From positions 1 to 37,287 of the forward strand of contig JBDHWW010000029.1 in the NCBI GenBank assembly GCA_039810425.1: a stretch of 37,287 nucleotides of DNA. The letters run 5' to 3'. How positions within the stretch are numbered: position 1 is the first letter of the stretch; each line of letters opens with the position of its first letter. Origin of the DNA: Pseudobdellovibrionaceae bacterium (GTDB lineage: Bacteria > Bdellovibrionota > Bdellovibrionia > Bdellovibrionales > Bdellovibrionaceae). This document shows, piece after piece, positions 1 through 3,000 of this stretch. Position numbers: made by a program.

Positions 1-3000
1 GTCCGTCTTTGCCCATCTCCTCAGACTACAATTTTTCTGGGAAAAATGCAAACTATGTATTGCTCTGGTTAATAATATCCACGGGAACGCCGCTAAAACA
101 GCTCCCGGTGACGACGACAGTATTCGTCGCAACCGTGTCGATGGTTGGGTAAAGAATGACAGGACCATCATTCACACCAAACTTCGCTGAGGTGTCTGGG
201 GCTTTACAGGCCACGTCCTGGCCAAGAAAGGTGAGTTTTGAGCACGCCGTTGTCGTCATCAAAGCGGTGAAGCCAAATAGCAGCGTGAGTGTTTTAATTT
301 GAACCATGAACGTCCCCCGTAGACCTCGTCAAACCTTAACGTTGCAAAGACAGGTCCATCCGGGAGACCCGGTGTCAACAGATCAAGCCTTGGGAAACAC
401 TTGGCATTCTCATTGTGAAATTTTTGTTTTTTTGCGCAAACAATGACGATCGATAAGATTGAAACACTTTCACTGATCTTCGTTATGTTCCTCGCAAATT
501 CGAGCAAGGGCTTTGCTCTTTCAATGCGATCAGGGGCGCTCCCGCAGCACCGAAAATGGAACAATCTAGAACTTACCGCCGGAACTGGGTACGCACCGGC
601 ATCAAAGATGCGTTCTCAAAAAACATGTCACAGGAAATTGTCAAAGCCTTGGCGTCGTCAAGAGGGGCCTTTCCGCAAACAAAAAAAACCGGAGCCTCTT
701 CGACTCCGGTTTTGGTGTTATTTCACTCTGTGGTTAGAGGCTGATTATACTTTCATCAAACCCGCGGTCCACTTCTGGATCATGGCCAGAGTTGACTGCT
801 CGGCACCTGCGAACTGAACCCCGTAAGATTGATTCGCTTCGTTCCACACGACTTGACCTGTAACCTCTACGAGGTCCCGGCCATCCGGGCTTGCGATCTT
901 CATAGTGATAATTCCGCCCTTTTCGAGGGCTTCGTCCGCGCTGAACGACGCACCACCGAGGGATATCGTCTTGAGGGAACCGGAAAGCTCGCGGTCTCCG
1001 ACCATAAGTCTGATGTCGGAATCCATTTTGAAGCGCTCGAACTTACGGCGGCCTGCTGGATCAGCGGCTTTTTGTTTTTCCAGGGCGCGCTGTCTGAGAA
1101 CAGTCCACACGATCACTGGGATTAAGAACAGGCCCGCCAGCACACCGGCGCCACTGAAGCCGTCCTTATTGTTGCCTGGCCCTTTCAACAACGCCGTTGA
1201 AACCATTCCACAACCCGGTTTTGGCGGAGTTGCTTCAGAGGCAAGACCCCGGGCATCGGCTTGATAGACCGGAGAGTAGTCCGGCTGATTTGCCAACACA
1301 TTTGCTTGGGCCTTTGCTTCAACGATCAAGTTGTAGGAGTTAATACGCGCCGAAGTTGAAACTTTTCCAAGCAAGCTTGAAACCGCAGTCGCCTTCGCCA
1401 TCATGATGTCTTTAATTTGATAACCCGTGAGATACGGAGCTTCTCGCATGGCAAGAGCCGCCATCCCAGCAACGAACGGCGTCGCCATGCTCGTGCCAGA
1501 CATAGTGCCCGTGCGATTGTTCGGCAAAGTACTCAAGATCAAAACCCCTGGACTCGCGATTTGCACTGAGCGGGAGCCGAAGTTCGAGAAACTTGCCAAG
1601 TAGTCGTAGTCTGTTGTTGCCGCTACTGAAACGTTTGAAGGCACGTCGTAGTTTGCTGGATACATGGAAACCGCGTCGTTGTTTTTACTGTTGTTACCCG
1701 CCGCCGTGGCGATGAACATACGGTTTGAGTACGCGAAAGTCAGAGCCTCATGGAGGGCGCGGCTGTAAGACGACCCCCCCCAAGAGTTATTAATCACGCG
1801 TGCACCATTATTCACCGCATAGTAAATCGCGCGGATGGCGTTAGATGTTGTCCCTGAGCCGTTCGCATCCAGGAACTTCAAAGGCATAATGCGCATTTTC
1901 GCAGTTTCAGTGATGGGATTTGCAAAGATATTAAGACTGGTGCCGACGATGATACCGGCAACGTGGGTCCCGTGGCCGTCGTCATCATAGTAGTCCGGCG
2001 TGTTGTTGATAAAGTTCCAGCCGTTGATGTCATCGATATAACCATTATAGTCATCATCGACCCCGTTTACGACTTCGCGGGTATTCACCCATAAGGCGTC
2101 GGAACTTGTAAAGACCGGATGGTTCTTATCCAGCCCCGTATCAACGATGGCCACGATCGGACGGTAGGTCGTTGACGTCGACTCAACCGCCCAAGCGTCT
2201 GATACTTTGGTCTGCGCGCCGTTCTGCGTATAGGCCGTCGCTGAAGGCGACACCTGATCTAAAGCTTGAACTTCACTGGCTTCATAAACCTTGTCGGGCG
2301 CGCCAAGCCCCGCACGGTCGTCAAAGTCTGATTTCTTAAAGACAAAGTTGGGTTCGATGTATTCAACATCCGGATCACTGGATAACTCTTCAATAGAAGT
2401 GGTGTCGGCAGAGCCGCCCTTCAACGAGATATGAACCATGTTCATCTGTGGAAAAGAGCCCTTCATATTGATTTTACTCGAGACCTTATTCAGGGCACCC
2501 GACGGCGCCGCCATCGGTTTGAACTTTACGATGTACTCCCCCGGCACCGTTTCCGGACCGGAAGATTGGGCATTGGCCATAGAAAGGCCGACAAAAAATG
2601 CAAATATCGTTGTAAGCATTGCCGAATGACTATCCACTCATGCTCCCTTGATGATAGGTATTTATCGGACAATGGTCGGGAAGGCTTTAGGCCTCTTTCG
2701 CCTCAGACTGGGATGGATGTGGAAATCTCAAAATGTTTACGTATGTTCACACCCATTCGCTTTGGGCTACCAATCAAAATGAGACTCTAATAGAATGGTT
2801 TCAATATGAATCACTTCCTCAAAACACTCCGTCAGATCTTCCTTAAGGGTCTTTTCACCTTCTTGCCTATCGCCGTGACGATTTACATCATCTACGCCGG
2901 TATTGTGATCATGGAAAGCATGCTGGGAACAACCATCCAGCGCTTCTTCCCGTCTTTATATGTTCCAGGTATCGGTTTGCTGCTGACGATTGTGTTTATT

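Follow-up and report, generated by a model that had tools for sequence, protein, structure and literature searches.

The window, a 37,287-nt stretch of DNA from a Pseudobdellovibrionaceae bacterium that was analysed as a whole, carries on its minus strand (745–2637) a complete coding sequence for a 630-aa protein composed of a pre-pro-subtilase, a tether, a membrane helix and a PilZ domain. These features identify the product as a Sec-exported pro-subtilase of the deseasin-like S8 type, which is predicted to stay anchored in the inner membrane of the predator itself via one near-C-terminal helix and to place its last ∼100 residues, the PilZ domain, on the cytoplasmic side. Our preferred reading, which we put forward tentatively, is that the protease is held on a c-di-GMP-controlled leash that would set its tethering, position or release. 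The family itself was already catalogued; new here are the FliA promoter and terminator, the single-copy spread, the invariant Gly-Cys-Gly and Pro, and the PilZ-less paralogs.

The coding sequence starts with a GTG codon at 2637, ends with a stop codon at 745–747 and is preceded, 5 nt ahead of the GTG, by a ribosome-binding site (AAGGGAG, 2643–2649, minus strand). The plus-strand frame over 745–2637 contains many stops, and a genome from the same genus encodes an ortholog that is 94% identical to the 630-aa protein. The open reading frame that a first-pass annotation had reported at these positions is real and complete, and only its strand had to be corrected to minus. All parts of the layout described there (signal peptide, fervidolysin-like propeptide, intact S8 domain, one helix and C-terminal PilZ domain) were recovered by Pfam searches, Kyte-Doolittle analysis and column counts in 121 homologs, the best full-length matches of a similarity search, from which the conservation counts below are taken. 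The signal peptide (residues 1–23, 2569–2637) was recognised as a hydrophobic window, and its cleavage site (...FFVGLSMANA/QS) was assigned by the AxA rule; A23 is kept in at least 90% of the family, and an N-terminal hydrophobic stretch is present in 114 of 121 homologs. A Fervidolysin/I9-type N-terminal propeptide follows (residues 21–97, 2347–2577; PF22148, Fervidolysin_NPro-like, E 4.3e-8, 33.9 bits with a cut-off of 21). The S8 subtilase catalytic domain (Peptidase_S8, PF00082) occupies residues 160–419 (1381–2160; E 1.3e-53, 182.6 bits with a cut-off of 21.8).

The catalytic Asp-His-Ser order is kept in this domain, and D166, H222, N315 (the oxyanion Asn) and S383 are invariant in the 121 homologs, with D[TS]G and GTS[MFLA][AS] boxes in 121/121 and H[GA]T in 119/121. 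The AF2 model has pLDDT values of 90–98 across the S8 domain. In Foldseek searches it matched deseasin MCP-01 (3vv3; E 1.6e-31, 39% identity, TM-score (target) 0.84), and pro-subtilisins aligned to the model over >450 columns, in keeping with the propeptide. Judged by the invariant catalytic set and the fold match to MCP-01, the S8 enzyme is active-looking. The best NCBIfam match was mycosin (TIGR03921, E 8e-32), yet its 110.7 bits lie far under the equivalog cut-off of 278.75. Mycosins (MycP, the subtilases of type VII secretion) are likewise secreted S8 subtilases that a single helix at the C-terminus keeps on the membrane; however, they lack a PilZ domain and are found in ESX loci of Actinobacteria and Firmicutes.

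The top 19-residue Kyte-Doolittle window (score 2.26) covers residues 496–514 (1096–1152), and the N-terminal signal sequence is the sole other strongly hydrophobic stretch. The corresponding window scores at least 1.57 in 121/121 homologs, and both structure models contain a helix at residues 497–525. This single membrane helix carries G498xxxG502, P507, which is invariant in the 121 homologs, and W511, and it is followed by L514-R515-x-R517. In 120/121 homologs, the 15 residues that follow the helix contain more Lys and Arg than the 15 that precede it (means 6.2 vs 0.8). In agreement with the orientation proposed by the first-pass annotation, the signal peptide, the single helix and this positive-inside bias would place the protease outside and PilZ inside.

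The S8 domain and the helix are connected by a periplasmic tether (residues 456–495, 1153–1272), which was delineated from pLDDT, column counts and length statistics and contains a conserved QPxYxPxY element, R463, A466-S467 and a Gly-rich spacer. Within it lies a Gly-Cys-Gly motif (G475-C476-G477, 1207–1215), in which C476 and G477 are invariant (121/121) and G475 is found in 119/121 homologs. Its Cys is the sole Cys of the protein in 63/121 homologs, and the motif is kept in 18/18 order-wide orthologs and in two paralogs that have no PilZ domain (see below). Residues ∼462–496 have pLDDT <50 and are predicted to be disordered. The distance from the Cys to the helix Pro is 16–39 residues (28% Gly), and that from the helix Pro to the RxxxR motif of the PilZ domain is 13–35 residues. 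RxxxR begins 8 residues past the helix in most homologs (range 8–19); the window's clade has an 8-residue insertion and a helix-to-RxxxR distance of 16, compared with 8 in the ortholog Bd2545. The catalytic Ser and the Cys are separated by a well-conserved distance (median 93), which suggests that the tether may in part have a structure or a function.

Since the two linkers are flexible and differ in length among homologs, we do not think that the active site is reshaped by a signal from the cytoplasm, and a rigid relay across the membrane appears unlikely from both sequence and models. Instead, the PilZ tail would bind c-di-GMP, probably as an intercalated dimer because R or K precedes RxxxR, and binding would fold the juxtamembrane loop onto the PilZ barrel at the membrane surface, given that RxxxR starts 8–19 residues past the helix. 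The bound ligand would then alter the partners of the helix and tail, either another copy of the protein or a cytoplasmic or inner-membrane partner. The altered association would set the site of the tethered enzyme in the envelope during attack and entry, and a leash of ∼40 residues could reach periplasmic, peptidoglycan-associated or outer-membrane targets. The invariant Cys and the invariant helix Pro count against a simple leash, which does not explain them.

The first-pass annotation had favoured inside-out allostery, in which the binding of c-di-GMP to PilZ would be signalled to the periplasm via the single membrane helix and would turn catalysis there on or off, as in a one-chain LapD/LapG system. 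In LapD/LapG, cytoplasmic c-di-GMP acts inside-out on a periplasmic protease, which provides a precedent; in addition, RxxxR lies directly next to the helix, in most homologs 8 residues past its end, P507 and W511 could form a hinge, and the nearly constant Ser-to-Cys distance could fit such a coupling. However, the 35 residues between the S8 domain and the helix are predicted to be disordered, the Gly-rich spacer varies in length, as does the cytoplasmic linker (13–35 residues), and the lone helix is accompanied by neither HAMP nor dimeric coiled-coil elements. We know of no route by which a conformational change would pass through such linkers in their absence. A tether with pLDDT <50 between variable linkers is a poor geometry for rigid allostery, and we regard gating of the active site in this way as distinctly unlikely. 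The comparison with LapD-LapG stands as an analogy only, as Pfam found none of the LapD/LapG domains in the protein, where all matches were to S8, PilZ and propeptide families.

The PilZ domain spans residues 530–624 (766–1050; PF07238, E 4.9e-17, 62.6 bits with a cut-off of 22.5, profile positions 2–100 of 102), with equal coordinates in a whole-genome scan. Both motifs named in the first-pass annotation are present, RRKFER at residues 530–535 and TISLGG at 557–562. In alignments, the RxxxR switch motif (R531–R535, 1033–1047, with R530 before it) falls opposite QRQFAR of Alg44. Both of its Arg residues, R531 and R535, show no variation among the 121 homologs or among 19 order-wide sequences, and R or K stands before RxxxR in 104/119 homologs. 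The second motif (952–969) aligns with DLSAGG of Alg44 and is an xxSxGG variant, in which S559 and G562 are kept and the first residue of the canonical (D/N)xSxxG is replaced by T. S559, G561 and G562 are invariant in the 121 homologs, and the spacing from RxxxR to the second motif is 26 in 112/121. Of the 119 homologs caught by a regular expression, 111 begin the second motif with T and 8 with S, and none with D or N; in the HD100 protein the motif reads TISQGG. On the strength of the invariant RxxxR, the R/K before it and the xxSxGG variant, the PilZ domain is probably ligand-competent.

Normally the D/N of the second PilZ motif contacts guanine, and Bdellovibrio makes 3′,3′-cGAMP. The domain might accordingly sense another nucleotide, such as 3′,3′-cGAMP, or in any case not c-di-GMP, and act constitutively in the cytoplasm, as an adaptor or to stabilise what would be a membrane-anchored housekeeping protease of the attack-phase envelope. 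The T or S in place of D/N in 119/119 homologs and the existence of PilZ-less paralogs fit this possibility, as do the nearest solved relatives found by profile search, which are PilZ proteins of type IV pili from Xanthomonas (E 0.004); one of them, XC1028 (3dsg), has a PDB title that mentions 'trivial c-di-GMP binding'. On the other hand, the order-wide invariance of RxxxR, S559, G561 and G562 is hard to square with a domain that binds no ligand, and elsewhere in this genome, PilZ domains likewise differ in the residue that opens the second motif (E, S, N or D). A PilZ domain with an xxSEGG variant, that of PA2989, is reported to bind c-di-GMP with a Kd of 2.88 µM in a preprint (10.1101/2020.02.11.943704). 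In view of these observations we consider a PilZ domain without a role in c-di-GMP sensing to be very unlikely, the least probable of the readings weighed here.

In the PilZ model the order of strands and helix fits the fold, with pLDDT values of 77–81 in the second half only and <50 in the first strands, so that the half bearing both motifs is modelled with low confidence. A Foldseek search with the C-terminal model gave no match at E ≤ 0.001, the motif-bearing half of the model being too uncertain; the PilZ domains of Alg44 and XAC1133 appeared at E 0.17–0.24. A complex prediction for two copies of residues 440–630 with two c-di-GMP molecules, run without controls, scored 0.00 in both runs and speaks neither for nor against self-association.

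The subtilase-PilZ architecture is restricted in its distribution. It is present in 63 of 301 genomes sampled across the phylum, all belonging to the class of the window (62 to its order and 1 to a different order), and was not found in the other families sampled within the phylum. Among 41 relatives spanning 13 families, 39 have one copy. A search with residues 470–630 alone returned 109 proteins at E ≤ 0.001, all of which (109/109) contain PF00082 and PF07238 and are 381–662 aa long, closely reproducing the description of the homologs in the first-pass annotation. In all cases found, the linker-helix-PilZ module either formed the C-terminal end of an S8 protein of ∼600–680 aa or belonged to a fragment. 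The single-copy spread and the restriction of the module support selection on the whole design. Five small genomes that lack the gene still show 2–3 GGDEF and 2–5 PilZ matches, so loss of the gene does not track loss of c-di-GMP signalling, and this idea was rejected. Two rare paralogs of 526 and 581 aa stop right after the GCG-spacer-helix-basic tail, without PilZ, and form a supported clade within the subtilase-PilZ lineage (100/94). By their sequences, these paralogs show that the anchor would work without c-di-GMP input.

The layout of the PilZ-less paralogs is that of known C-terminal sorting signals, and because these paralogs exist, the idea of a sorting tag was retained as a rival. In such a scheme of regulated shedding or sorting, the R-x-x-A-S ... 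G-C-G part of the tether would be a processing site, the GCG-spacer-helix-basic tail a C-terminal sorting or anchor signal, and c-di-GMP bound to PilZ would decide on release. The cut could be autocatalytic or the work of a rhomboid-type intramembrane protease or some other enzyme, with release to the periplasm or beyond. This would account for C476 and G477 being invariant, for G475 in 119/121 homologs and for the order-wide retention of Gly-Cys-Gly. The invariant P507 and the frequent Gly residues are helix-destabilising, as in substrates of intramembrane proteases, and the genome has five rhomboid-family genes, although rhomboids were also found in 14/14 control genomes. However, neither MYXO-CTERM (TIGR03901) nor GlyGly-CTERM (TIGR03501) exceeded its cut-off in the protein or the genome, and NCBIfam returned zero families at E ≤ 10 for residues 465–525. 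An HMM of the tether plus helix (residues 446–520) matched solely its own gene among all six-frame ORFs (next E 0.33), and a scan of C-termini for a helix followed by a basic tail, which yielded 69 ORFs, revealed no GCG-tagged set. As the HMM and C-terminus scans found none, there is no tag family or dedicated sortase to indicate. In addition, the GCG lies 16–39 residues from the helix Pro, whereas in known C-terminal tags the motif is nearer to the helix. Overall, we consider regulated shedding fairly unlikely.

A related and more speculative proposal, which we rate as unlikely, is a second-messenger-gated anchor. The GCG tether, spacer, Pro-containing helix and basic tail would be an old C-terminal anchor or sorting element of this subtilase lineage, surviving by itself in the rare PilZ-less paralogs, to which PilZ was added later in the main line, and c-di-GMP made on prey contact would decide whether the protease stays leashed or is cut free. 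If this were true, no earlier signal for protein sorting or shedding would have been under the control of a cytoplasmic cyclic dinucleotide, and the freed protease, which ranks among the most highly transcribed of the attack phase, would act on the envelope or on prey during invasion.

Several known systems offer partial parallels to the 630-aa protein. The PilZ domain of Alg44, the alginate co-polymerase of Pseudomonas aeruginosa, is the best phmmer match among solved structures (4xrn, E 0.35), both motifs align, and the Foldseek probability for its match to the tail of the 630-aa protein is 0.89. In Alg44, however, the order is reversed, with PilZ at the N-terminus, and what lies in the periplasm is an HlyD-like domain without enzymatic function, part of a polysaccharide machine, whereas here it is a protease that stands alone and has its own signal peptide and propeptide. 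In BcsA, the bacterial cellulose synthase, a membrane helix, an RxxxR linker and a PilZ barrel follow one another directly, as in the 630-aa protein, and the ligand binds at the membrane surface. The PilZ domain of BcsA acts on the protein's own cytoplasmic gating loop, whereas the sole other catalytic domain of the 630-aa protein lies across the membrane. The nearest functional analogy is provided by LapD/LapG of Pseudomonas fluorescens and by DvhD/DvhG, in which cytoplasmic c-di-GMP governs a periplasmic protease. These are two-protein systems. Their receptor combines HAMP and a sequestering domain in the periplasm with an EAL or HD-GYP domain that is degenerate, and their protease is a BTLCP-type Cys protease that depends on calcium. 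Domains of the LapD/LapG type (BTLCP, HAMP, GGDEF-EAL, HD-GYP, sequestering) were not found in the protein or in the annotated neighbours (1–9436), nor could any of these neighbours be recognised as a gene for an adhesin or for type I secretion. With a protease outside and a nucleotide sensor inside one membrane, the protein could show second-messenger control of periplasmic proteolysis without a LapD-type receptor; should nothing further emerge, a correct annotation of an envelope protease of the attack phase would still have been gained.

The ortholog in Bdellovibrio bacteriovorus HD100 is Bd2545 (NP_969350.1, CAE80343.1, Q6MK66), a 628-aa protein with 50% identity over 99% of the length and an identical Pfam set; its neighbours, Bd2546 and Bd2547, match those in the window in their sizes and overlap. 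Bd2692 was considered as an ortholog and dismissed, as it is a different protease, with PilZ absent from the main text of the paper describing it. In Bdellovibrio, which has many PilZ proteins, c-di-GMP from specific cyclases is required for prey entry. Bd2545 was tabulated as 'Subt-PilZ' (Tripathi & Sowdhamini 2008, PMC2605481), in line with the statement of the first-pass annotation that the domain pair was in print as a table entry. Its caveat that the HD100 ortholog might already have been touched also proved true, as Lambert 2010 lists Bd2545 as a pilZ gene that is down-regulated on leaving attack phase. The literature found on Bd2545 consists of this table entry (2008), the one-line mention (2010), one sentence of a review (2020) and entries in the supplements of omics papers. 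Searches for functional work on the family found none, in line with the statement of the first-pass annotation that topology and mechanism are new.

In the supplements of Karunker 2013, Bd2545 RNA reaches an RPKM of 11,906 in attack phase and 4.3 in growth phase (∼2,800-fold), and a transcription start supported by 273 reads is mapped for a one-gene operon annotated 'FliA site: yes'. In published proteome data, the log2 fold change of the protein relative to attack phase is +0.15 at 1 h, −0.57 at 3 h (FDR 0.003) and −0.93 at 7 h; at 4 h, in the exit phase, it is −1.31 when computed as a difference of supplement values, a ∼2.5-fold fall. These data from others show a monocistronic, attack-phase-specific RNA and a protein that cells contain during attack and entry, with a reduced level at exit. 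Of the two phases proposed by the first-pass annotation for the action of the protease, attack or exit, the former is favoured by the FliA-type promoter, the Bd2545 RNA and the ∼2.5-fold lower protein level by 4 h. Single-copy in the order, under an attack-phase sigma factor and with a transcript induced to this extent in HD100, subtilase-PilZ is a one-gene candidate for a link between c-di-GMP and the envelope. In Tn-seq data for strain 109J (supplements of Duncan 2019), two loci annotated as 'subtilisin-like serine protease', EP01_RS07740 and EP01_RS08730, have W values of 0.96–1.53; neither was mapped to Bd2545.

In the window, the gene is predicted to be a self-contained transcription unit with its own sigma-28/FliA-type promoter and terminator. 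The putative attack-phase promoter (TAAAG-N16-CCGATA, 2663–2689, minus strand), assigned by motif match, is located 26 nt upstream of the start and fits the Bdellovibrio attack-phase consensus TTAAG-N16-CCGATA, as given in Karunker 2013, at 10/11 positions. It is the window's only match to TAAA-N14-18-CCGATA, with 0.27 expected by chance. Among 20 loci scanned, 7 of the 9 orthologs of family f1 have a similar site, with at most one mismatch, no more than 80 nt upstream. An intrinsic terminator with a 12-bp stem and a T run (685–713, minus strand) starts 32 nt past the stop codon. The neighbouring genes are the divergent genes of a DUF502 protein and of a 466-aa protein. Neither product matched an NCBIfam family, and the 466-aa protein also had no Pfam match. 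As these neighbours are kept in 9/9 loci of family f1 and in 0/9 loci of other families, they are conserved within the family only, and the gene neighbourhood provided no lead to function. The HD100 counterparts of the two neighbours have an attack-phase expression that is 50–150 times lower.

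The subtilase-PilZ gene g02159 is an open reading frame of 630 codons at positions 745–2637 of the minus strand; the first-pass annotation had the coordinates and the reading right but omitted the strand, and the plus-strand reading is riddled with stops. The GTG start codon lies at 2637 with AAGGGAG 5 bases upstream, and a terminator with a 12-bp stem starts 32 nt past the stop codon. Three Pfam domains score over their curated cut-offs: Fervidolysin_NPro-like (residues 21–97, E = 4.3e-8), Peptidase_S8 (residues 160–419, E = 1.3e-53) and PilZ (residues 530–624, E = 4.9e-17). 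Only two hydrophobic stretches reach membrane-helix strength, namely an N-terminal signal sequence (ending ...FFVGLSMANA/QS) and residues 496–514 (Kyte-Doolittle 2.26), followed by RQRALEKQK...RRKFERFK. This confirms the proposed architecture of signal peptide, propeptide, S8 protease, one helix and PilZ. In 120 of the 121 best full-length homologs, K+R are more numerous in the 15 residues that follow the helix than in those that precede it (means of 6.2 and 0.8), and 114 contain a hydrophobic stretch at the N terminus. These features and the signal peptide make a protease outside and PilZ inside the sole reasonable topology, a prediction that is well supported by sequence.

The ortholog in Bdellovibrio bacteriovorus HD100 is CAE80343.1 ('Subtilisin like serine protease', 628 aa, 50% identity), which supplementary tables identify as Bd2545 (NP_969350.1, Q6MK66). 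Tripathi & Sowdhamini 2008 (PMC2605481) list NP_969350.1 as 'Subt-PilZ', and a 2020 review lists Peptidase_S8 as a PilZ partner domain. The architecture is thus already catalogued, and g02159 belongs to the uncharacterised Subt-PilZ family typified by Bd2545; we found no functional work on Bd2545 or on PilZ-subtilisin/Peptidase_S8 proteins in the literature. What is new here is the link to a FliA promoter in the window, the single-copy distribution across the order, the invariant Gly-Cys-Gly (GCG) and Pro, the PilZ-less paralogs and the case against rigid gating.

PF00082 and PF07238 occur together in all of the best 120 database matches, and in 109/109 proteins retrieved with residues 470–630 alone. 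When a tether-helix-PilZ profile was compared with 1.84 billion representatives, the whole module was found only C-terminally in proteins of ~596–680 aa, or in fragments, and weaker matches covered the PilZ part only. In the 121-sequence alignment, D166, H222, N315 and S383 of the S8 domain are invariant, as are R531 and R535 (RxxxR) and S559, G561 and G562 of the second PilZ motif. Two members, P0143 and P0155, come from MAGs labeled Bacillota and Cellvibrio, respectively; these labels are probably binning errors, since all other named members are Bdellovibrio-type.

The structure model of the protease is deseasin-like (match to 3vv3, E = 1.6e-31, 39% identity) and aligns with unprocessed pro-subtilisins, so g02159 is, according to the model, made as a zymogen. 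The tether contains conserved residues (Q451-P452-x-Y454-x-P456-x-Y458, R463, A466-S467 and G475-C476-G477), of which C476 and G477 are invariant; the counterpart of C476 is the sole Cys of the whole protein in 63/121 homologs. The distance from the catalytic Ser to this Cys is steady (median 93). The helix carries G498xxxG502 (GxxxG pattern in 78/121), invariant P507 and W511. Two PilZ-less paralogs from other genomes, L031 (G028:C27, about 3800–5380, minus strand) and L032 (G009:C21, about 3700–5443, minus strand), of 526 and 581 aa, retain the GCG, the spacer, the Pro-containing helix and a basic tail and then end; both genomes also have a PilZ-bearing ortholog. The paralogs form a clade (100/94) within the subtilase lineage, in a tree of 24 rows, none dropped, with three long-branch outgroups, whose open basal forks fit either loss of PilZ or its never having been present.

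The first-pass annotation proposed that c-di-GMP binding is relayed across the membrane to gate the protease. Such transmembrane allostery seems improbable, as both linkers are flexible and variable, which argues against rigid gating: tether residues 462–496 have pLDDT under 50, and the spacer between Cys and helix Pro varies from 16 to 39 residues (28% Gly). What the data show is the domain order, the conservation, the promoter motif and the expression of Bd2545; all that concerns ligand and output is inferred. On our reading, c-di-GMP would bind the PilZ tail at the membrane surface, and because of these linkers its effect is likelier to fall on the partners of the anchor or on protease attachment than on active-site shape. 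We therefore tentatively prefer a c-di-GMP-controlled leash, docking or self-association, which leaves the invariant Cys and helix Pro, the best experimental handles on the protein, unaccounted for. Regulated shedding or sorting of the protease is rather unlikely, and the residual probability belongs to some other explanation. The genome encodes five rhomboid-family genes in 3.5 Mb (C47:5819-6289, C30:27567-28022, C14:61260-61712, C14:52571-52993 and C20:41839-42255), whose intramembrane proteases might come into play should the Pro-containing helix serve as a cleavage substrate. In working logic g02159 would come closest to LapD/LapG, and in its arrangement of a PilZ domain, one helix and a periplasmic domain to Alg44, but by the Pfam scan it belongs to neither; the suggested LapD-LapG counterpart holds as an analogy. 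Mycosins are likewise helix-anchored S8 proteases, but g02159 scores far under the mycosin model cut-off.

That the PilZ domain is not a c-di-GMP sensor at all is a quite remote alternative. The second motif reads T/S-I/L-S-x-G-G, and its first position is never D/N in the 119 homologs caught by a regular expression. However, c-di-GMP binding (2.88 uM) is reported for PA2989, which has an xxSEGG motif (preprint 10.1101/2020.02.11.943704), and the 12 PilZ-domain matches over cut-off in the genome have E, S, N, D or T at this position, so residues other than D/N are common there in this bacterium. An R or K, tied in the same preprint to dimeric c-di-GMP binding, directly precedes RxxxR in 104/119 homologs. 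RxxxR follows the helix window at 8 residues for the majority of homologs and at 16 for the clade of the window.

The gene is present as one full-length copy in 39/41 related genomes spanning 13 families of a single order (a contig end breaks the copy of G017, counted among the 39); the two that lack it are each a complete genome in one contig (2.2 and 1.8 Mb). Of 301 genomes sampled evenly across the phylum, 63 carry the C-terminal module, once per genome, all but one copy inside a 606–704 aa frame; 62 of these genomes belong to the same order and one to another order of the class, and the module was not found in the other families sampled. Five small genomes without the gene keep 2–3 GGDEF and 2–5 PilZ matches, so its absence does not stem from loss of c-di-GMP signaling.

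A FliA/sigma-28-type promoter motif, TAAAG-N16-CCGATA, lies at 2663–2689 (minus strand) and ends 26 nt ahead of the start codon; no other site in the 37 kb fits TAAA-N14-18-CCGATA (0.27 matches expected by chance). In Karunker 2013, 140 mapped attack-phase promoters yielded the consensus TTAAG-N16-CCGATA, which was attributed to FliA/sigma-28. Among 20 loci scanned, similar sites (≤1 mismatch, ≤80 nt upstream) occur in 7 of the 9 ortholog loci from the family of the window. The Karunker 2013 supplements describe Bd2545 as a one-gene operon ('FliA site: yes') whose TSS (273 reads) precedes the gene by 19 nt, with RPKM of 11,906 in attack phase versus 4.3 in growth phase, and Lambert 2010 names it as one of three pilZ genes down-regulated upon exit from attack phase. 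The 2025 proteome supplements show Bd2545 steady from attack phase to 2 h and falling thereafter (log2FC −0.57 at 3 h, FDR 0.003; −0.93 at 7 h); the difference that we computed from the tabulated values is −1.31 at 4 h. By this RNA and protein course, the protein is an attack-phase and entry protein and not an exit-phase one, so of the 'attack or exit' timing first suggested, the promoter motif and RNA uphold attack, and the fall in protein from 3 h speaks against exit.

Divergent from g02159 on the plus strand are a DUF502 membrane-protein gene (2806–3426) and an overlapping gene for a 466-aa protein (3426–4826) with no Pfam or NCBIfam match. This pair adjoins the subtilase gene in 9/9 loci of the same family and in 0/9 loci of the other families of the order; in HD100 it corresponds to Bd2546 and Bd2547, both weakly expressed. 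Further along the plus strand, genes for a PilT/T2SSE-type secretion ATPase (375 aa, PF00437, E = 1e-54) and, immediately downstream, a trypsin-like serine protease (298 aa) lie at 7324–9436.
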